Source of the DNA: an uncultured Oscillospiraceae bacterium
Lineage (GTDB): Bacteria; Bacillota; Clostridia; Oscillospirales; Acutalibacteraceae
Length of the DNA stretch: 64,000 nucleotides
Assembly (NCBI GenBank): GCA_900547305.1
Contig: URGH01000002.1
Span: forward strand, 8,829 to 72,828
Reading direction: 5' to 3'
The notes under the pieces were generated by a model, which ran no database searches, was not told the DNA's origin, and was given only the letters and a program-made list of their open reading frames with translations. Positions 2,145-63,545 of the stretch are shown here, in pieces. The stretch's first letter is position 1; each line of letters opens with the position of its first letter. Position numbers and translations under genes: made by a program.

Positions 2145-4191
2145 GGTATACGCCCTCCCCGAAAATTTCCTTGATAAACACAACCAGCTGACCGAATAAC
2201 AAATATACAATGCAAACCGCCACAATAACCATAATCATAAAGAAGAAAACAAGAAATATATTCTTCACCGTCTCGCCGAAGCTGTAACGCTGAATATCCT
2301 TAACGCTCATAAAGACAAGGCAGGCAGCCCAGGCTATTACAAACAAACTGCCGAGATTTACAATAAAAGCCTCGTTGAGCGTAAGCCCGTAGCTTAAAAG
2401 CACAATAAACGGAGTAATAATTATATACGGCGCAAACGCATAAGCGGTTGCAACATAAATTTGCTTAAAGCTGCCCTCGCCCTCGTTTATGGTTCCTATC
2501 ATGTAATTTCCCGCAAGCCAAAGCAGCAGCGGAACCCAAAACATTATAAGCACCGAAACGGGGTTTGTTGTGCTGAGCTTCAGCACCCCGAAAAGATACC
2601 CCCTGCCGAGAACATCAAGCAGATACACGCCGAAAAACAGAAAGTATATAACCGTTGCGGTCATAACCGAGCCGTGCTCGCCGCGGCGCAGGTAATAGTA
2701 GCCGTCTATCGGGTGCCTGAGCATGGTTTTAATATACGCCGTTTCCTTTAAAAACCGTTTTGCTCCCGAAACGGGTTTTTCCGCCGCCCTGTTTTTATGC
2801 TTTTTCCGAAAAACGGAACGGATAATAAGCAAAGCTGCTATAAGAATAACGCATAAAAATATATAGCCTATATTACGGTTAAGCCACTCGTTGCGAAGCT
2901 CCCAAAATGCGTCGGAGTAGTATTCGGTGTTATTCGCGATTTTAAAATGCTCCAGCGCCGCTTTGTACTTCTGCTGGTAAAAAAGAGCCTTGCCGTAGCC
3001 CATATGAGCTATCTGCGACATTCCGTTCAGCCTTAAAAGCCCCGCCCATATTTCCTCGCTGCTTTCATAATCGCCCTTGTCAAGCGCCGCTACCGCGCTG
3101 TGGGTAAGGTTTGCAAAGTCGGTCGGGTAAAATACCTGAACCAGCGCCCTATCCTGGTCAAGCACATATAAAATTCCGCTTTCGTCGTCAACATCTATCG
3201 CAACCGCGTTGGTAAAAATTCCGTTGCGGTCGTCGTCATAAGCGCGCCCGCCGAAAGTGAACACAAGATTTCCCTGGCTGTCGTACTCGTTTATAATTCC
3301 CGTTTGGGTCACCGCAAAAACATTTCCGTATGGTCCCGCCGCCACATCGGTAAAATTCCATTCCTCTTTCATTTTGCCGCTTTCGGCAAATATGTTAAGC
3401 CCCGCCATGTTGTGCATTTTAAGGGTATCGTCCGATGTGGAGGCATATGTTATGCCCTGCATGTCGTCGCTTCTGGTAACGCTGAATATCAAGTCTTTCT
3501 GCGAAACGTCAATGTTATTTACCGGGCGCGGGGTGCGCACCATAAGCGTTTCCTTTTGCCTTGCGTTGTAAATAAGCTCCTGAAAACGCTCGGTCATGGT
3601 CATTTTGTATTTATTTGCGGCAAAGTACCCGAAAAATTTGCCCTTTGAGTTAAACTGCATAATTCCCTCGTAGGCGCCGTCACCCACAACAAAAATGTTC
3701 CCGACAGAGGAAACTGCAACCGCGCAGGGGGAATAAAGACTTGTTTTGCTGAACAAATAGCTTTCAGGTCTGCCTATTGTCATTTTAAGCCTATGCGAAG
3801 CGTCGTACACAAAAACCGCCTGCGCCTGCGGGTCGGCTGCGTAAACCGTTCCGTCGTCCGTAACAAAAAGTCCGTCGGGCGCTATAAGCTCATCGCCGCC
3901 GAAAAATTCGGTTTCGGAGCTTGCAATATCGTAAACCGCAATGCGGGCGTTGCCGCTGTCGGATATATACAGCTTTCCGTTTTTATAAAAAACATCGCCC
4001 GGCTGCGAAAGTCCCGTTCCCTTTGCGTATACCGCCGCTGGTATATAAGCGTCCTGGGTTTTTACCCACTCGCCGTCAACCGAAACCGTGTAGGTGTATG
4101 TGGTGTTATCGGAAGCATATACGTTAAAACCGCCCGAAATAACGGCGAGAACCGCCGAAATAACACAAAGGCGTTTCAGTATTTTGCGCAT
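2131..4191 (-). CDS. Membrane protein: signal peptide, NHL-repeat beta-propeller ectodomain, TPR-like segment, C-terminal Yip1-like multi-TM domain.
   Basis: 686-aa ORF with GGAGG RBS. Repeated DG..YV.D and NHL-like blades. The C-terminal 250 aa has 5-6 hydrophobic helices resembling Yip1/DUF1282. Confidence 0.6.
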   Translation of the reverse strand: MRKILKRLCVISAVLAVISGGFNVYASDNTTYTYTVSVDGEWVKTQDAYIPAAVYAKGTGLSQPGDVFYKNGKLYISDSGNARIAVYDIASSETEFFGGDELIAPDGLFVTDDGTVYAADPQAQAVFVYDASHRLKMTIGRPESYLFSKTSLYSPCAVAVSSVGNIFVVGDGAYEGIMQFNSKGKFFGYFAANKYKMTMTERFQELIYNARQKETLMVRTPRPVNNIDVSQKDLIFSVTRSDDMQGITYASTSDDTLKMHNMAGLNIFAESGKMKEEWNFTDVAAGPYGNVFAVTQTGIINEYDSQGNLVFTFGGRAYDDDRNGIFTNAVAIDVDDESGILYVLDQDRALVQVFYPTDFANLTHSAVAALDKGDYESSEEIWAGLLRLNGMSQIAHMGYGKALFYQQKYKAALEHFKIANNTEYYSDAFWELRNEWLNRNIGYIFLCVILIAALLIIRSVFRKKHKNRAAEKPVSGAKRFLKETAYIKTMLRHPIDGYYYLRRGEHGSVMTATVIYFLFFGVYLLDVLGRGYLFGVLKLSTTNPVSVLIMFWVPLLLWLAGNYMIGTINEGEGSFKQIYVATAYAFAPYIIITPFIVLLSYGLTLNEAFIVNLGSLFVIAWAACLVFMSVKDIQRYSFGETVKNIFLVFFFMIMVIVAVCIVYLLFGQLVVFIKEIFGEGVYRAGH

Positions 4192-4202
4192 TTATATACC
4201 TC

Positions 4203-5093
4203 CTACTTAATTCCGGAATGCATCATGGTATTCATAACACGGGACTGCATAATAATAAAAATAATCAAATTCGGCAAAAACAGTATAAGCGTTGCGGCGG
4301 CAGCCATACCCACGCCCGCAATTCCGCCCGCCGAGCCCGTAAGCGAGCTTATGTAAAACGGAAAGGTTTTCAGCGCCTCGTTATCTATATAAAGGGTTGA
4401 AGCCTCGGTTGCGCCCCATGCCGCCTGAAATGTGGTAATAGCCACGGTTGCAATTGCCGGGTTTACAAGCGGGAATACTATTTTCCGAATAATCGTATAG
4501 TCGGTAGCCCCGTCGATTACGGCTGCCTCTATAAGCGCGTCGGGCATTTGGTCTATATTCTGCTTTATAAGAAAAACGCCGGTTGGAGCCACAAGAAGAG
4601 GAATAATGTTGGAGAAGAAATTATCCTGAAGCCCCGTATAAATAATTACAAAATATCTTGGAATGGCAACCGCGGCGGACGCGAACATCATACCGAGGGT
4701 GTTTATTGTAAAGAGCAGCTTTTTACTTCTGAAATTCTTTTTTGAAAGCACATAGCCCGTGCAAACCGAAATAACCACCGTTAAAATAACGACCGCGGCG
4801 GTTGAAATTACGCTGTTAAACAAATACCTTGCCGCGGGCACGTCGGTATCGGCCGCCATTGCGAAAAGATCGCTGAAATTCTCCCATGTAGGGTTTTTAA
4901 CGTAAAATCTCGGCGGGTATGCAAACAGCTCGTCAATCGGTTTAAAGGCGTTAAAGAAGATAAAAACCAGCGGAAGAGCCATAACAAAGCATATGGGAGC
5001 CAAAATCAGAATGAATTTTATCTGACTGCGCGAAAAATGCTCGGGATTGATTCCGCCCGATTGGAGCGCGGTCTTCTTTTTTCGTTTTGACAT
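4203..5093 (-). CDS. Carbohydrate ABC transporter permease (MalG/LplC-like)
   Basis: 296 aa with 6 TM segments. EAA-loop motif IDGATDYTIIRKIVFPL. Confidence 0.9.
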   Translation of the reverse strand: MSKRKKKTALQSGGINPEHFSRSQIKFILILAPICFVMALPLVFIFFNAFKPIDELFAYPPRFYVKNPTWENFSDLFAMAADTDVPAARYLFNSVISTAAVVILTVVISVCTGYVLSKKNFRSKKLLFTINTLGMMFASAAVAIPRYFVIIYTGLQDNFFSNIIPLLVAPTGVFLIKQNIDQMPDALIEAAVIDGATDYTIIRKIVFPLVNPAIATVAITTFQAAWGATEASTLYIDNEALKTFPFYISSLTGSAGGIAGVGMAAAATLILFLPNLIIFIIMQSRVMNTMMHSGIK

Positions 5094-49645: not shown

Positions 49646-50023
49646 ATGAAAAACTTTTCACGGCAGCGTGAAGAAATAATCCGGGTTCTCCGCTCTACCG
49701 ATACACATCCCACAGCCGCGTGGGTATATTCGCGGGTTAAAGAGGCAATACCTAATATTAGCCTCGGCACCGTTTACAGAAATCTTGCGGCTCTCAGCGA
49801 ATCGGGAGAAATACTCTCCCTTTCGGTGGGCGACGGTTTCGAGCATTTCGACGGTAATCCCGCGCCGCACGCGCACCTGCACTGCCGCATTTGCGGCAAA
49901 ATTGCCGACGCACCGATGCAGGGCGACCCGTTGGCTGATGTAGCCCGCGAGCACGGCTTTGAGCCGGAAACCTCGGTTTATATCGAATACGGCGTCTGTG
50001 AAGAGTGTAAAAAACAAAAATAA
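49646..50023 (+). CDS. perR: Fur-family peroxide-responsive repressor (PerR-like)
   Basis: 125 aa. HxH and CxxC...CxxC metal sites. Next gene is a rubrerythrin. Confidence 0.8.
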   Translation: MKNFSRQREEIIRVLRSTDTHPTAAWVYSRVKEAIPNISLGTVYRNLAALSESGEILSLSVGDGFEHFDGNPAPHAHLHCRICGKIADAPMQGDPLADVAREHGFEPETSVYIEYGVCEECKKQK

Positions 50024-50043: not shown

Positions 50044-50589
50044 ATGAAAAAGTTTGTATGTCTTGTTTGCGGTTATGTTTATGAGGGCGAGTCCGCTCCC
50101 GAGGAGTGCCCCATCTGCCACGCTCCGGCTTCAAAGTTCGCCGAGCAGGCAGCTGAGAAAACCTGGGCTGCTGAGCATGTTGTAGGCATAGCCAAGGGCG
50201 CTGATCAGAGAATAATCGACGGTTTGCGTGAAAACTTCAACGGCGAGTGCACCGAGGTGGGTATGTACCTGGCAATGGCGCGCGTAGCCCACAGAGAGGG
50301 CTATCCCGAAATCGGGCTTTACTGGGAAAAGGCGGCTTTTGAAGAGGCGGAGCACGCCGCAAAGTTTGCCGAGCTTTTAGGCGAGGTTGTGACCGACAGC
50401 ACCAAGAAAAACCTTGAAATGCGCGCGGACGCCGAAAACGGCGCCACAATGGGTAAATTTGAGCTTGCAAAACTTGCAAAAGAGCTTAACCTTGACGCTA
50501 TACATGATACGGTGCATGAGATGGCAAAGGACGAAGCCCGTCACGGCAGAGCGTTTGAGGGACTGCTCAAGCGTTACTTCAACAAGTAA
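50044..50589 (+). CDS. rbr: Reverse rubrerythrin (N-terminal rubredoxin-like CxxC..CxxC plus ferritin-like diiron domain)
   Basis: [21 protein letters not shown] followed by an ExxH diiron domain. Confidence 0.9.
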
Positions 50590-58243: not shown

Positions 58244-58276
58244 ATTTGAAATTTTTGTTAATTCGGCATATCGCAA

Positions 58277-58305
58277 TTGATTTTTTTGTCGAACAGTGCT
58301 ATAAT
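58277..58305 (+). promoter_or_regulatory. Promoter TTGATT-17-TATAAT upstream of the small-protein/ATPase pair
   Basis: Sequence match. Confidence 0.4.
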
Positions 58306-58338
58306 ATAGCGGAAAAAGAAAAAAGGAGGTTGTTTTAA

Positions 58339-58617
58339 ATGAAATGTGCATGGGGTAAGCTCGGATTATTTGCCGGAGGACTGCTTTTCGGAACGGCCGG
58401 CCTTAAAATTCTGAGCAGTAAAGAGGCTAAAAAAGCCTATACATACACCGCTGCTGCGGCGCTGCGCGCTAAAGAGGACGTTATGACGGTTGTTACCGCC
58501 GTAAAGGAAAACGCGGGCGATATTCTTGCCGACGCTAAGGCGCTTAACGAAAAGCGCGCTGCCGAAGCGGAAGCGGGGGTTATTGAAGATACCGCCGCGG
58601 AAGAAACCGAAAAATAA
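58339..58617 (+). CDS. Small membrane-anchored hypothetical protein (92 aa)
   Basis: N-terminal TM helix, Ala/Glu-rich helical tail. AAGGAGG RBS. Confidence 0.5.
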   Translation: MKCAWGKLGLFAGGLLFGTAGLKILSSKEAKKAYTYTAAAALRAKEDVMTVVTAVKENAGDILADAKALNEKRAAEAEAGVIEDTAAEETEK

Positions 58618-58723
58618 TTTCAGCTGAGAGTAGTTCCCTCTCATTCGGTCTCGCATACGCTCAGCTCCCTCCACGGAGGGAGCATTATTTTTATTTGCAT
58701 TAAATTTTCGGAGATGCAGTTTT

Positions 58724-60817
58724 ATGAAATGCTTGGTATTGCACGAATCGCAGGGCAGACTGCGCGTGCATTTATGTATAAACAGAATGAGTCTTCATTC
58801 CGCCGATGTTCTGGAGTATTATCTGCGCGGGGTTGTGGGCATTTCCGACGTTAAGGTTTACGACCGCACATGTGACGCCGTGGTAGCATACAGCGGCGCG
58901 CGGGCGGACGTTATAAAGGCTTTTGCCGCGTTTTCACCCGCAAAAGCCGAAACCGAGGTGTCTATACCCGAGCACACTGCGCGGGCGCTCAACCGCGAGT
59001 TTGAGGATAAGCTGGTTTCGGCGGTTTTAAAACGATTTTCTTTAAAGCTGTTTTTGCCGCTGCCGCTGCGCTCGGCAATAGCGGTTTATCACTCGCTGCA
59101 CTATATAAAGGCAGGCTTACAGGCGCTTATAAAGGGCAGGCTTTCCGTATCGGTGCTTGACGCCACGGCGGTTACCGTATCGCTTTTGCGCCGTGATTTT
59201 GACACCGCCTCGTCCGTTATGTTTATGCTGCGACTGGGCGAGCTGCTTGAGGAATGGACGCATAAAAAGTCCGTTTCCGACCTCGCGGGCGCTATGTCGC
59301 TTAATGTAGACAAGGTTTGGCTTAAAACCGACGAACAGGAAATTCTGGTTTCAATAAACGATATTTCCGCGGGGGATAAAATAATAGTGCGCACGGGCAA
59401 TCTTATCCCGCTTGACGGCAAGGTGCTAGCGGGCGACGCTATGGTAAACCAGGCTTCAATGACGGGCGAATCGCTGCCGGTTAAAAAAAGCGCGGGCAGC
59501 TACGCATATGCCGGAACGGTTGTTGAAGAGGGCGAGTGCGTAATCTCGGTTGAAAAAACCATGGGCGGCGGGCGCTATGACCGCATTGTTCATATGATTG
59601 AAGAGTCGGAAAAGCTTAAATCCACCGCTGAAGATAAGGCTTCGCACTTAGCCGACAGGCTTGTACCCTACACCCTCGGCGGAACGGCGCTTACATATTT
59701 ATTAACGCGCAATGCCGTAAAGGCGCTTTCGGTGCTTATGGTGGATTTTTCCTGCGCATTAAAGCTTTCAATGCCCATAGCCGTAATATCCGCCATGCGC
59801 GAAAGCAATAAATACAACGTTTCGGTAAAGGGCGGCAGATTTTTAGAGGCGGTAGCAAAGGCTGATACAATTGTCTTTGATAAAACAGGCACGCTCACCT
59901 TTGCAACCCCGCGTGTTGCAAAAATCGTAACTTTCAGTGGACGGAATGAAAACGATATGCTGCGGCTTGCCGCCTGCCTTGAAGAGCATTACCCGCACTC
60001 GCTTGCAAACGCCGTTGTAGAAGAAGCGGCAAAACGCGGGCTTAACCACGAGGAATACCACTCAAATGTTGAATATGTGGTGGCTCACGGCATTTCAAGC
60101 ACGGTTGAGGGCAGAAAGGTAGTTATTGGCAGCTATCATTTCGTGTTTGAGGATGAGGGCTGCACCGTACCCGAGGACGAAAGAGATAAATTTGACGGTA
60201 TTTCGGATGAATACTCCCACCTTTACCTCGCCGTTTCGGGGGTTTTAAGGGCAGTTATATGCATTGCCGACCCGCTGCGCCCCGAGGCTGCCGCCGTTGT
60301 TTCGGCGCTGCATAAGGCGGGCATTAACAAGGTTGTAATGATGACGGGCGATAACGAAAAAACCGCCGCCGCAGTGGCGCGCGCCGTGGGTGTGGATGAA
60401 TACCGCGCCGAGGTTTTGCCCGAAGATAAGGCGGAGTTTATCCGCCGCGAAAAGGCGGCGGGGCACACCGTTATTATGATAGGCGACGGCGTAAACGATA
60501 CTCCCGCGCTTTCCGAGGCGGATGTGGGCATAGCCATAAATACGGGCGCCGCAATCGCCAAGGAAATTTCGGATATAACCGTTTCTTCAAACGATTTGTT
60601 CAAGCTTTTAAAGCTGCGCGAAATTTCGGCGGCGCTTATGTCCCGCATAAACAGAAACTACCGCTTTATTGTCGGGTTTAATTTTCTGCTTATAGTTTGC
60701 GGCGTTACGGGTGTAATTCAGCCTACAACCTCGGCGCTGCTGCACAATATGTCAACACTTGGCATAAGCATAAAAAGCATGACCGACCTGTTGCCCGAGG
60801 AAAACGGCAAAAATTAA
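58724..60817 (+). CDS. P1B-6-type (SCA motif) heavy-metal-type P-type ATPase lacking a CxxC metal-binding domain
   Basis: DKTGTLT, GDGVNDTPAL. The TM6 motif is FSCALKLSMP in place of CPC. The N-terminal HMA-like fold has no CxxC. Confidence 0.8.
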   Translation: MKCLVLHESQGRLRVHLCINRMSLHSADVLEYYLRGVVGISDVKVYDRTCDAVVAYSGARADVIKAFAAFSPAKAETEVSIPEHTARALNREFEDKLVSAVLKRFSLKLFLPLPLRSAIAVYHSLHYIKAGLQALIKGRLSVSVLDATAVTVSLLRRDFDTASSVMFMLRLGELLEEWTHKKSVSDLAGAMSLNVDKVWLKTDEQEILVSINDISAGDKIIVRTGNLIPLDGKVLAGDAMVNQASMTGESLPVKKSAGSYAYAGTVVEEGECVISVEKTMGGGRYDRIVHMIEESEKLKSTAEDKASHLADRLVPYTLGGTALTYLLTRNAVKALSVLMVDFSCALKLSMPIAVISAMRESNKYNVSVKGGRFLEAVAKADTIVFDKTGTLTFATPRVAKIVTFSGRNENDMLRLAACLEEHYPHSLANAVVEEAAKRGLNHEEYHSNVEYVVAHGISSTVEGRKVVIGSYHFVFEDEGCTVPEDERDKFDGISDEYSHLYLAVSGVLRAVICIADPLRPEAAAVVSALHKAGINKVVMMTGDNEKTAAAVARAVGVDEYRAEVLPEDKAEFIRREKAAGHTVIMIGDGVNDTPALSEADVGIAINTGAAIAKEISDITVSSNDLFKLLKLREISAALMSRINRNYRFIVGFNFLLIVCGVTGVIQPTTSALLHNMSTLGISIKSMTDLLPEENGKN

Positions 60818-60825
60818 AATAATTT

Positions 60826-60865
60826 TGCGGGCTGCCGATAAATTCTATCGGCAGCCCGTTATTAT
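60826..60865. terminator. Bidirectional terminator between the ATPase and cca
   Basis: GCGGGCTGCCGATA-aattc-TATCGGCAGCCCG. Confidence 0.6.
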
Positions 60866-60913: not shown

Positions 60914-62080
60914 TTAATTAATTTGTTCAAAGGTGATTGCCTCGGTCAGTCTCTTTTTCGTATTAAGCGTAGGGTCGTTTATTATAAGTCTTCGCAAGGC
61001 TTCAAGTGTATCCCCCACTTCCCTGCCGCTTATGCCGAGCTTTTTAAGGTCTTCGCCCCGTATTTTAAGGTCGGAGATTTTATAAGGCTCGGCGTTTTTT
61101 ATTATTTCCGATAGCATATTTCGCGCGTTTTCGCAGTTTTCACCGTAAGCCTCCTTATAATCGAAATAATTTTCGACCGATAGGGGCGAGGTTAAATAAA
61201 GCATTTCCTTAATTTCGGCTTTCGTGCTCGGAAACGGCATATTAAGAAGTGTAAGCATATCCCGCGCGGATTTTTTGGTTTTGTTCGGCACTCTCAAAAA
61301 GTCCAGCGCGGCTGTAACCTCCGCCCCGCCCGAATAAAGAAAGGCAAAGAGTTTTGTGTCAGCCGAACCTAAAAGCGGCAATGTGCCGTAATCGGGGGCA
61401 GTATTAAGCCCTAAAAAGCCAAGCCCGCCAATATCGGTCAGCGGTTTTAATGCGGCGGGGTTTTTGCCGCAAACGGTCTTTAAAAGCTCGGAATAAATTC
61501 GCTCGGCGCTCACGTTTTTTAGCGTGGGGGCGTACTCCAAGGCTGCTTTAAGGGTGCTTTCTTCAATATCAAACCCCAAAACCGAGGAAAAGCGGAAAAG
61601 CCGCAAAATTCTCAGCGCGTCCTCGCAAAATCTGCGCTCCGGCTCGCCCACTGCGCGAAGAATACGGTTCTTTATATCTTCTTTTCCGCCGAAAAAGTCC
61701 TTTAAGCCGTCCTTTTTATTATATGCCATTGCGTTTACGGTAAAATCGCGGCGGGCAAGGTCCTCGCGCAGGCTTTTTACGAAAATTACGCTGTCGGGGC
61801 GGCGGTGGTCGCGGTATTCGCCGTCGGTTCGGTAGGTAGTAACCTCGTTCGGCACACCGTTTATAATAACCGTAACCGTGCCGTGCTTTATGCCCGTGGG
61901 CACGGTTTTTTCAAATAGCGATATAACCGTTTCGGGCTCGGCTGAGGTGGTAATGTCAAAATCGTGCGGGGTATCGCCGTTCAGCATATCGCGCACGCAG
62001 CCGCCCACAGCATACGCCTCATAGCCGTTTTTTTGCAAGGTTTCAATAATATATTCGGTGTCGCTAGGTAAAAATAGCAT
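60914..62080 (-). CDS. cca: CCA-adding tRNA nucleotidyltransferase
   Basis: True start MLFLPSDTEY. GGCVRD...DFD polymerase-beta motif. Confidence 0.85.
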   Translation of the reverse strand: MLFLPSDTEYIIETLQKNGYEAYAVGGCVRDMLNGDTPHDFDITTSAEPETVISLFEKTVPTGIKHGTVTVIINGVPNEVTTYRTDGEYRDHRRPDSVIFVKSLREDLARRDFTVNAMAYNKKDGLKDFFGGKEDIKNRILRAVGEPERRFCEDALRILRLFRFSSVLGFDIEESTLKAALEYAPTLKNVSAERIYSELLKTVCGKNPAALKPLTDIGGLGFLGLNTAPDYGTLPLLGSADTKLFAFLYSGGAEVTAALDFLRVPNKTKKSARDMLTLLNMPFPSTKAEIKEMLYLTSPLSVENYFDYKEAYGENCENARNMLSEIIKNAEPYKISDLKIRGEDLKKLGISGREVGDTLEALRRLIINDPTLNTKKRLTEAITFEQIN

Positions 62081-62168
62081 AATTTTTATTTTCCTTTCAA
62101 AAAAGGGTTTATTTTTTTGCCGTTTAGCAATATAATAGTAAGTAATAATGTTTTTAAGGAGACCGATT

Positions 62169-63545
62169 ATGAAACAGCTTCGCGATGAGGATAAAATCAT
62201 AACACAGGTAAAGCATATTCATATGATAGGCATAGGCGGCAGCGGAATGTGCCCGCTTGCCGAAATACTGCACGGTAAGGGGTACATCCTTACGGGGTCG
62301 GATAATAACGAAAGCGACCCGTTAGCAAGAATTAAAAACCTCGGCATAAAGGTTTATATGGGGCACAGGGCTGAAAACATAAAGGGAGCGGAGCTTGTGG
62401 TGTACTCTGCGGCAATAGCAGCCGATAACCCCGAGCTTAAAGCTGCGCGCGAGCAGGGCATACCCACAATGGAGCGCTCGCATATGTTAGGCGCTTTGAC
62501 CCGTCACTTTGATAATGTTATAGGCGTATGCGGCACGCACGGCAAAACCACCGTTACCTCTATGATAACACAAATTTTAATTTTAAACAAGATGGATCCT
62601 ACCGCGGTTATAGGCGGAAAGCTGCCGCTTATAAATTCAAACGGTATTTCGGGCAAATCGGAAACAATGGTTTGCGAGTCCTGCGAGTTTGTTGATACCT
62701 TTTTGCAGCTCTCGCCCGATATTGCGGTGCTGCTTAATATTGATAACGACCACCTCGATTATTTCAAGACTATGGAGAATATGACCCTCTCTTTCCACAA
62801 GTTTTTGAAAATGGCAAAAACGGCGTATATAAACGGGGACGACAGCCGCGTTTTAACCGCCGCAAAGGATATTGAGGCGGATATTATTACCTTCGGCTTC
62901 GGCGCAGATAATTTTTACCGTGCCGAAAATATAGAAAGCCGCAAGCGCGGTTTCGCGTTTGACGTGATAAAGAATAATGAGAAGATAATAAATATTGAAA
63001 TGCATATACCGGGTAAGCACAATGTTTTAAACGGGCTTGCCGCGTTTGCCGTGTGCTTTGATATGGGCGTTTCGGCAAACGGAATTAAGAGCGCAATTGA
63101 AAAATTTACGGGCGCGGGCAGACGTTTTGAATTTTTGGGCGAGTACGACGGCTTTATGCTGGCGGACGATTACGCCCACCACCCGACCGAAATTAAAGCC
63201 ACCCTTTCCGCCGCAAAGGAGCTTGACTACAATAACGTTATAGCGGTATTTCAGCCTTTTACCTTTTCGCGCACCGCGCTTTTAAAGGACGATTTTATAA
63301 AGGCGCTCTCTATTGCCGATAAGGTAATATTAACCCCGATTATGGGTTCGCGCGAGAAAAACACCTACGGCATTAAAAGTGAGGATTTAGCGGCAGGGCT
63401 ACACGATGTCTGCGTAGTGGACGGGTTTGAAAATATAGCCGATAAAATTGAAGAAATTGCCCGCCCGGGGGACCTGGTTATTACAATGGGCGGCGGCGAT
63501 ATTTACAAGGCGGCGCACATTATACAAGGCAGGCACGCCGAATGA
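62169..63545 (+). CDS. murC: UDP-N-acetylmuramate--L-alanine ligase
   Basis: GIGGSGM P-loop. Mur ligase domains. AAGGAG RBS. Confidence 0.95.
   Translation: MKQLRDEDKIITQVKHIHMIGIGGSGMCPLAEILHGKGYILTGSDNNESDPLARIKNLGIKVYMGHRAENIKGAELVVYSAAIAADNPELKAAREQGIPTMERSHMLGALTRHFDNVIGVCGTHGKTTVTSMITQILILNKMDPTAVIGGKLPLINSNGISGKSETMVCESCEFVDTFLQLSPDIAVLLNIDNDHLDYFKTMENMTLSFHKFLKMAKTAYINGDDSRVLTAAKDIEADIITFGFGADNFYRAENIESRKRGFAFDVIKNNEKIINIEMHIPGKHNVLNGLAAFAVCFDMGVSANGIKSAIEKFTGAGRRFEFLGEYDGFMLADDYAHHPTEIKATLSAAKELDYNNVIAVFQPFTFSRTALLKDDFIKALSIADKVILTPIMGSREKNTYGIKSEDLAAGLHDVCVVDGFENIADKIEEIARPGDLVITMGGGDIYKAAHIIQGRHAE

Follow-up and report, generated by a model that had tools for sequence, protein, structure and literature searches.

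A probable minimal fezA–fezB ferrosome module with a putative leaky terminator between its two genes in an uncultured Oscillospiraceae bacterium

Ferrosomes are lipid-bound iron-storage organelles of anaerobes, and the P1B-6 ATPases have been identified as FezB, their signature protein (Grant et al., bioRxiv 2020 / Nature 2022). The content of ferrosomes is iron-phosphate. FezB is defined by the motif D[Y/F]SCA, the motif HNxxT and an N-terminal R-rich motif, and nearly all fez clusters, which hold 2–10 genes, encode a small hydrophobic-GxxxG protein, FezA (Grant et al.). Work on Clostridioides difficile (Pi et al., Nature 2023, as cited in later papers) is reported to show that FezA, which is a membrane protein, and FezB, a P1B6-ATPase, are Fur-repressed and both needed for ferrosomes, that the two proteins induce ferrosome compartments when expressed in Escherichia coli, and that expression of fezAB (CD630_05910-05920) rises when fur is mutated and when iron is scarce. 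Small proteins of the DUF6110 family, described as ‘PacL-like’, are typically encoded with P1B6 ATPases (Boudehen et al. 2022). Here we analyze a two-gene locus within a 64,000-nt stretch of DNA, hereafter the window, from an uncultured Oscillospiraceae bacterium (assembly GCA_900547305.1, contig URGH01000002.1, positions 8,829 to 72,828 of the forward strand).

It is probable, judging from the sequence comparisons set out below, that this locus is a minimal fezA–fezB ferrosome module whose spacer would act as a leaky intercistronic terminator, keeping FezB below FezA, and not as a metal sensor. The locus consists of two same-strand open reading frames (ORFs), one of 92 aa at 58339-58617 and one of 697 aa at 58724-60817, separated by a 106-nt gap (58618-58723). 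By its motifs, its orthology and its GxxxG partner, the pair shows every sequence-level feature of a fezA–fezB module. The features of the locus, all on the plus strand, are as follows.

58277–58305, plus strand: sigma-70-type promoter-like site, TTGATT-17 nt-TGcTATAAT (extended -10), 10/12 match, with TG
58324–58329, plus strand: AGGAGG, a strong Shine-Dalgarno site in front of the fezA-like gene (pairing with the 3' end of 16S rRNA, -13.7 kcal/mol)
58339–58617, plus strand: fezA-like gene, 92-aa DUF6110 protein (Pfam DUF6110, E 2e-35)
58625–58643, plus strand: hairpin 1, TGAGAG (58625-58630)-TAGTTCC-CTCTCA (58638-58643), lineage-specific
58664–58696, plus strand: intrinsic-terminator-like element, an 8-bp GC-rich stem with a CACG loop, then A and UUAUUUUUAUUU (hairpin, -15.3 kcal/mol)
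58710–58713, plus strand: weak Shine-Dalgarno site GGAG of the ATPase gene (-6.6 kcal/mol), 10 nt before the ATG
58724–60817, plus strand: fezB-like gene, 697-aa P1B-6 P-type ATPase (E1-E2_ATPase and Hydrolase, TIGR01525, motifs)
60827–60859, plus strand: 14-bp terminator-like hairpin at the operon end, which the pair has in common with the CCA-adding-enzyme gene that converges on it (-27.3 kcal/mol)

The 697-aa protein matches the E1-E2_ATPase and Hydrolase (HAD) families and the heavy-metal P-type ATPase model TIGR01525 (475 bits), and it carries the P-type hallmarks TGES 247, DKTGT 386, MTGDN 540 and GDGVND 587. Its metal-site helix (TM4 of the core) reads VDFSCALKLSMP and includes F342-S-C-A-L-K-L-S-M-P351, with V-D341-F-S-C-A345 at nt 59744-59758. 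When aligned by HMMER to Legionella pneumophila CopA, F-S-C falls under C-P-C, with Ser for the usual Pro and the second Cys retained. The last helix carries H674-N-M-S-T678 (nt 60743-60757) and the preceding helix Asn N653, which gives a spacing of N-X20-HN, compared with the N-X18-HN given in one review. In an alignment of 84 family members N653, H674 and N675 never vary, and conservation reaches at least 90% at S343, C344, A345 and T678. A HMMER search of 1.84 billion cluster representatives gave 13,633 proteins at E <=1e-30, and the motif survey covered the 97 full-length 50%-cluster representatives among the best 150 matches: (Y/F)SCA is present in nearly all of them, HN..[S/T] in the last helix in 88, and an N-terminal CxxC in 2. 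The conservation seen in the family matches the published P1B-6 signature, which combines an SCA metal-site motif with an HN motif in the last helix. Assignment to this P1B class rests on these motif surveys, on out-group loci of 31–35% identity with CPC or CSC motifs, and on comparisons with the Protein Data Bank (PDB).

No CxxC is present in the N-terminus of the window ATPase, which instead has an RxR-type motif, G11-R-L-R-V15 (nt 58754-58768); among 38 N-terminal domains R12 is conserved in at least 90% and R14 in all. A model of residues 1-82 by themselves, built with 38 homologues, has a beta-beta-alpha-beta-beta-alpha fold with a predicted local distance difference test score (pLDDT) of 92.7. 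The best domain-sized Foldseek matches of this model are heavy-metal-associated (HMA) domains, namely MerP 1afi (root-mean-square deviation, rmsd, 2.1 A), HMA7 3dxs (1.7 A), CopZ and PacS-N, with rmsd 1.7-2.1 A, TM 0.6-0.7 and Foldseek E of about 1e-2. The conserved G-R-x-R lies on the first strands, where HMA domains have CxxC. Because Pfam HMA does not match the N-terminal 85 aa even at E 10, the HMA likeness is supported at the level of fold alone. The full-length ATPase, modelled with AF2 (pLDDT 84.8), has the P1B fold, with Foldseek E of 1e-39 to 1e-44 to solved pumps. The solved P1B ATPases (LpCopA 3rfu/4bbj, AfCopA 7r0g, SsZntA 4umv and sCoaT 7qbz) share this overall fold and match at sequence E of 1e-63 to 1e-72, LpCopA being the nearest chain by sequence (E 2e-72). 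However, the window ATPase is only 22-27% identical to them, it has F-S-C where CopA has C-P-C, and its HN..T helix and RxR N-terminal domain are without counterpart among them. Sequence and Foldseek searches of our PDB copy found no P1B-6 structure.

The 92-aa protein matches DUF6110 (PF19605) with 121 bits against a cut-off of 26. It begins with a hydrophobic helix that carries the GxxxG motifs G9LFAG13 and G14LLFG18 (nt 58363-58404), followed by a long helical region; its tail, EAEAGVIEDTAAEETEK, is Glu/Ala-rich and acidic and has no His or Cys. GxxxG occurs in all 131 orthologous partners, the tails of which are likewise E/A-rich. The window protein is 45% identical (E 8e-24) to Q189E0 of C. 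difficile 630, which itself matches PF19605 (E 1.6e-22). Q189E0 is listed beside a P1B-6 ATPase of that strain (supplementary table, Boudehen et al. 2022).

The C. difficile ATPase that adjoins DUF6110 (locus L172, reached through the 98%-identical cluster representative P0271) aligns with the window ATPase over 697 residues with zero gaps, 57% identity and 76% positives, and RxR, DFSCA and HN..T are common to both. For comparison across relatives we assembled 160 loci from one-genome-per-species contigs and from metagenome contigs, to which closer relatives were added, giving about 170 in all. In all 149 scorable loci the gene immediately upstream of the SCA ATPase, and on its strand, is a DUF6110 ORF, while ATPases of 31-35% identity (L071, L073-L080) have CPC or CSC motifs and no DUF6110 neighbor. 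Within this out-group, the ATPases of L073, L074, L076 and L077 (~3001-4700; 31-32% identity) have V-A-C-S-C (CSC, P1B-7-type) and an N-terminal CxxC, and those of L075, L078 and L080 have F-C-P-C and an HN..[S/T] tail with no CxxC (‘P1B-6-like’, as CtpC).

A first-pass annotation of the window, made from the sequence alone, had given the two ORFs and their 106-nt gap correctly and had recognized an SCA-type P1B-6 ATPase with all P-type hallmarks and without CxxC, which the motif positions and the 84-member conservation bear out. Its pairing of the ATPase with a small membrane protein is real, as the 149 loci show, but already known, having been published both as FezA/FezB and as DUF6110 PacL-like/P1B6. 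The HMA-like fold that it proposed holds structurally and fails by Pfam. Its statement that the metal transported by this subgroup is unknown is out of date, given that P1B-6 is FezB, the ferrosome pump, for which Fe(II) is the presumed substrate.

Between the two genes, hairpin 2 is formed by GCTCCCTC (58664-58671), CACG and GAGGGAGC (58676-58683) and is followed by ATTATTTTTATTT. With 8 bp, 6 GC pairs, a 4-nt loop and 10 U in the next 13 nt it has the classic shape of a Rho-independent terminator. Only 40 nt separate the end of this stem from the ATPase ATG, including the GGAG site, which leaves no room for a promoter; hence the ATPase should be transcribed through the hairpin. The whole leader folds at -31.2 kcal/mol, compared with -22.7 +/- 3.5 kcal/mol for shuffled sequences (z -2.4; 2 of 200 shuffles as good), which is beyond chance, if modestly.

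Spacers in the 136 distinct orthologous loci have a bimodal length distribution, with a gap of <=25 nt in 64 loci (16 of which overlap) and of >45 nt in 68. We scored a terminator-like match as a stem of at least 6 bp with at least 3 GC pairs and a folding energy of -7 kcal/mol or better, accompanied by a T-run. Such matches were found in 37/68 of the long spacers (>45 nt) and in 0/68 ATPase coding segments of the same length, and in 28/131 of the 150-nt segments after the ATPase stop. The spacer hairpins with their T-runs are non-homologous between loci, so it is the architecture that recurs and not the sequence. The distance from the stem end to the ATPase ATG has a median of 27 nt across loci (interquartile range, IQR, 24-40). 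Cultured relatives with a hairpin in the spacer include Hominicoprocola fusiformis CLA-AA-H269 (L006), Anaerostipes hadrus (L039) and Enterocloster aldenensis (L052). The two genes also differ in their ribosome-binding sites: over 127 loci the mean Shine-Dalgarno energy is -11.6 kcal/mol for the fezA-like gene vs -8.4 kcal/mol for the ATPase gene (Wilcoxon p 3e-18). New here are, first, the terminator-like hairpin that recurs in the fezA–fezB spacer of about one in two long-spacer operons and, second, the family-wide Shine-Dalgarno asymmetry between the two genes. Both would push in the same direction, which suggests that FezA is made in excess of FezB. Such an excess fits a scaffold or membrane-shaping small partner working with a catalytic pump, and the recurrence of the hairpin together with the asymmetry suggests that the system is set up to have more of the small partner than of the pump.

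The mechanism that we propose is as follows. Both genes would be transcribed from the single promoter at 58277-58305; a sequence scan of the region that extends from fhs, upstream of the pair, to the start of the ATPase gene found no second promoter-like site. The intercistronic terminator and the weak ATPase ribosome-binding site would then lower the pump relative to its small partner, with the ATPase made solely from transcripts that read through the hairpin. We infer that termination is partial rather than complete and that its purpose is stoichiometry. The FezB-type ATPase would use ATP to carry Fe(II), its presumed substrate, out of the cytosol and into small vesicles bounded by a membrane; there, if the window organism forms such organelles, iron would accumulate as an iron-phosphate mineral. 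The FezA-type DUF6110 protein, with its GxxxG transmembrane helix and Glu/Ala-rich cytoplasmic helix, would be the membrane partner required for forming or stabilizing the compartments and the pump.

The window leader itself is kept in the closest relatives only, namely L171 (identical), L084 (95% ATPase identity), L081 (90%) and L169 (83%). Hairpin 1 is retained in L084 and L081, with its closing pair changed from U-A to C-G in L081, and is absent from L085, L168, L170, L086 and L087. The terminator stem has one compensatory C-G to U-A change in L081/L169, which makes two compensatory changes, one per hairpin, among three distinct leader copies, too few for covariation statistics. Other close relatives depart from it: the hairpin of L085 (84%) is another one, the spacer is short and contains nothing but a terminator-like hairpin in L168, L170, L086 and L087, and it measures 2 nt in L083 (82%). 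A blastn search with the leader over the ~170 loci found L084 as its sole match, and nhmmer over the fetched loci returned no lines. Rfam on the window leader at permissive E gave sub-threshold noise (best E 0.07-7, far below gathering scores), and at the gathering threshold it found nothing in the operon of 20 related long-spacer loci. Two alternative pairings were considered. The first, an antiterminator of UCCCUCU (58635-58641) with the 3' arm of the terminator, can be drawn in the window and is not preserved in L081; it was rejected because comparative support is wanting. The second, proposed by RNAalifold, pairs GUCUC (58649-58653) with GAGAU (58711-58715) over the ATPase Shine-Dalgarno site, and amounts to 5 bp in three near-identical leaders, too short a pairing in sequences too alike to be interpreted.

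These observations bear on the possibility that the 106 nt between the genes form a leader, be it a riboswitch or a regulated attenuator, which senses a ligand or a metal and governs the ATPase by alternating between a terminator and an antiterminator fold. We regard this as very unlikely. It draws on the better-than-shuffled fold, on the necessary passage of ATPase transcription through the terminator, and on the UCCCUCU segment that could pair with the terminator arm. In addition, GCUGAG can pair either with CUCUCA, as hairpin 1, or with CUCAGC, abutting the terminator, and the three linked changes between the window and L081 keep both pairings possible, although this is seen in three sequences only. 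However, the candidate antiterminator pairing is lost in L081, the leader is carried by three distinct sequences only and has no Rfam match, blastn recovers it in one further locus of ~170, unrelated hairpins or a 2-nt spacer take its place at 77-84% ATPase identity, and about half of the orthologous operons have a gap of <=25 nt. The first-pass annotation was right about a spacer with hairpins and a U-tract, although its 9-bp stem with an ‘acg’ loop counted one G twice (the actual hairpin has 8 bp and a 4-nt loop). Its attenuator stands insofar as a terminator-like hairpin lies between the genes with no promoter room after it, and falls as regards regulated sensing. Its ligand-sensing leader does not survive the lack of conservation beyond the closest relatives (ATPase 83-95% identical), of an Rfam family and, in about half of the operons, of a spacer at all. 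The same applies to the proposed triad of small protein, leader and ATPase, in which the gene pair is conserved and the leader is not.

Several points weigh against the leaky-terminator ferrosome module. Transport of Fe(II) by FezB is still worded with ‘may’ in a 2026 preprint, and we infer that the L172 ATPase is FezB from its P1B-6 type and its DUF6110 neighbor, not from a locus tag. The window promoter has a best Fur-type match of 8/14 and a best DtxR-type match of 7/12, both at background level. Scans for Fur boxes (7-1-7 and 19-mer), TGAGAAT-type and DtxR/IdeR-type boxes and de novo palindromes gave no convincing site there; iron regulation is therefore not supported for the window locus. 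The loci are phylogenetically related, so the terminator counts are not independent events. The C. difficile operon has a 42-nt, AT-rich spacer without a hairpin which, together with the 64/136 gaps of <=25 nt, indicates that the terminator is dispensable for function. Finally, the hairpin could act mainly as a 3' stabilizer of the fezA message.

This last point extends to a broader alternative, which we consider quite unlikely, that the hairpin is a 3'-end stabilizer or RNase processing barrier protecting the fezA segment once the transcript has been cleaved, or a neutral lineage-specific insertion, and no terminator in vivo. Its U-tract is broken right after the stem (A-UU-A-UUUUU), spacer hairpins are freely gained and lost among close relatives, and the characterized C. 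difficile operon does without one. On the other hand, hairpins with a T-run are enriched in long spacers over coding segments and are commoner there than at the operon end by the same rule, and they sit consistently just 5' of the ATPase ribosome-binding site. A stabilizer would likewise leave FezA above FezB, which makes this alternative in part a variant of the leaky-terminator module that we favor.

The promoter and its surroundings were compared with those of the nearest relatives. The -35 and -10 boxes and the upstream TTTTTGTTAA are conserved in L084, L081 and L085, though the flanking genes differ. In the window TTTTTGTTAA is at 58261-58270, ~10-20 nt 5' of the -35 box, and in L085 it reads TTTCTGTTAA; an UP element and a binding site for a regulator are both conceivable. 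The sequence GCTATA-A-TATAGC (58298-58310), a perfect palindrome of 13 bp, lies over the -10 box; it is also found in L084 and L062 and not in L081, and it could be an operator or a mere consequence of the near-palindromic TATAAT.

Among related promoters, Fur-like 7-1-7 boxes (at least 11/14) occur in 23/132 vs 2.6 expected, including a TGAGAA-N3-TTCTCA variant, and DtxR-like GTTAGC-N4-GCTAAC boxes (at least 10/12) in 18/132 vs 0.8 expected from shuffles. These candidate boxes match the iron link reported for fez clusters (Grant et al.). DtxR/IdeR-like palindromes lie between the -10 box and the ribosome-binding site of the fezA-like gene in L003, L112, L125, L001, L088 and L089/L090, the one in L003 reading AAGTTAGC-TGCG-GCTAACTT. 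The C. difficile locus L172 has its best Fur-like site (12/14) ~545 nt upstream of the fezA ATG, and the ~960-nt AT-rich region upstream of fezA (3035-4000) contains tandem copies of TATATAAACTAGA; within its spacer (4397-4438), three overlapping Fur-like 11/14 matches (4400-4426) lie right before the fezB ribosome-binding site. In the window, a Fur-family gene (49646-50023, plus strand; Pfam FUR E 3.6e-23) lies directly before a rubrerythrin gene (50044-50589, plus strand), ~8.3 kb upstream of the pair, and looks like part of a PerR-type peroxide-stress unit and not like the iron regulator of fezAB.

A bolder form of the proposal, which we hold to be doubtful but conceivable, is that the terminator, far from being a passive spacer, exists to control how ferrosomes are made, with read-through setting or switching the FezA:FezB ratio, and that FezA and PacL form one ancient family of pump organizers. 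Read-through would perhaps be coupled to ribosomes that finish fezA while trailing RNA polymerase, or to a trans-acting factor, and the FezA:FezB ratio would decide whether vesicles form and fill. This would tie in with the C. difficile spacer, in which the Fur-like boxes hold the same intercistronic position. If FezA and PacL are one family, ferrosomes and ‘effluxosomes’ would be two outcomes of one two-part module.

The neighbors of the pair in the window are fhs and, on the minus strand at 60914-62200, the gene of the CCA-adding enzyme; no iron-homeostasis gene adjoins it, and there is no further fez-type gene. Flanks vary among L081-L087 and L168-L171 (ATPase 77-100% identical), nearly every relative having its own neighbors: L084 has an amino-acid ABC transporter, L081 has G5/3D-domain and leucine-rich repeat (LRR) proteins, and L087 has a carbamoyl-phosphate synthase. 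Given that the flanking genes differ even at 77-95% ATPase identity, the pair seems to travel as a unit or cassette with no accompanying regulator. To our knowledge, ferrosomes have been shown experimentally in few species only. Whether gut commensals make them is a question raised in recent reviews. With ~150 relatives from Oscillospiraceae and Lachnospiraceae, the minimal fezAB module would be widespread in the human gut microbiota, and its spread there would be relevant to competition for iron in the gut.

The closest known system is fezAB of C. difficile, which has the same arrangement of a DUF6110 gene first and a P1B-6 ATPase gene second on the same strand, in a host that is likewise a gut anaerobe of the Clostridia. 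The differences lie in the spacer, which is 106 nt long with a terminator-like hairpin in the window, in the tail of FezA, which makes the C. difficile protein longer (131 aa vs 92 aa in the window), and in regulation, given that C. difficile fezAB belongs to the Fur regulon and scans of the window promoter yielded no Fur-like box. The fez clusters of Desulfovibrio magneticus, Shewanella putrefaciens and Rhodopseudomonas palustris share with the window the FezB motifs, the small GxxxG protein and an anaerobic lifestyle. However, they consist of 3-6 genes, including FezC (HMA and TM), DUF4405, FeoA-domain and ferritin-like genes, compared with two in the window.

A further comparison is with PacL1-3 and CtpC, CtpG and CtpV of Mycobacterium tuberculosis, in which a single-TM, Glu/Ala-rich protein is also encoded just upstream of a CxxC-less P1B ATPase. 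By analogy with PacL1/CtpC, the window pair could form an ‘effluxosome’, in which the DUF6110 protein is a scaffold or chaperone that stabilizes the ATPase in plasma-membrane foci and a toxic metal (Zn, Mn or another) is pumped out of the cell, not into an internal organelle. We think this unlikely. In its favor, a relation between DUF6110 and DUF1490 and the pairing of such proteins with P1B6 or P1B6-like ATPases have been published, and our profile–profile comparison of the two families (21 vs 10 proteins) supports that remote relationship with 85.5% probability (E 5.7e-6, 58 columns). The window protein also possesses a Glu/Ala-rich region, on whose PacL1 counterpart the stability of CtpC depends, and a Fur-like box is missing from the window promoter.

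Against it, PacL proteins belong to DUF1490, are restricted to actinobacteria and have a His-rich metal-binding end, whereas Pfam finds DUF6110 alone and no DUF1490 domain in the window protein, which lacks the PacL-type C-terminal His-rich motif; at least three H/C in the tail are seen in only 4/131 orthologues. CtpC carries the HN motif like the window ATPase, but it has CPC and is merely ‘P1B-6-like’, whereas the window ATPase has SCA. The PacL/Ctp systems have been shown to act at the plasma membrane in resistance to Zn, Cd or Cu and not in iron storage (Boudehen et al. 2022), and ferrosomes are what the C. difficile pair makes, which is far closer to the window pair (57% and 45% identity). 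The absence of a His-rich PacL1 tail and the presence of SCA and not CPC thus lead us to file the window pair with FezA/FezB, with an efflux platform as the main rival. The two readings nonetheless rely on one mechanism, in which a small scaffold and a pump occupy a membrane domain; the main differences concern topology and substrate. Two 2026 effluxosome papers leave ferrosomes unmentioned, and too little use may have been made of the connection between these literatures. The locus also shows that the literature on ‘PacL-like DUF6110’ proteins and the literature on FezA describe the same protein family.

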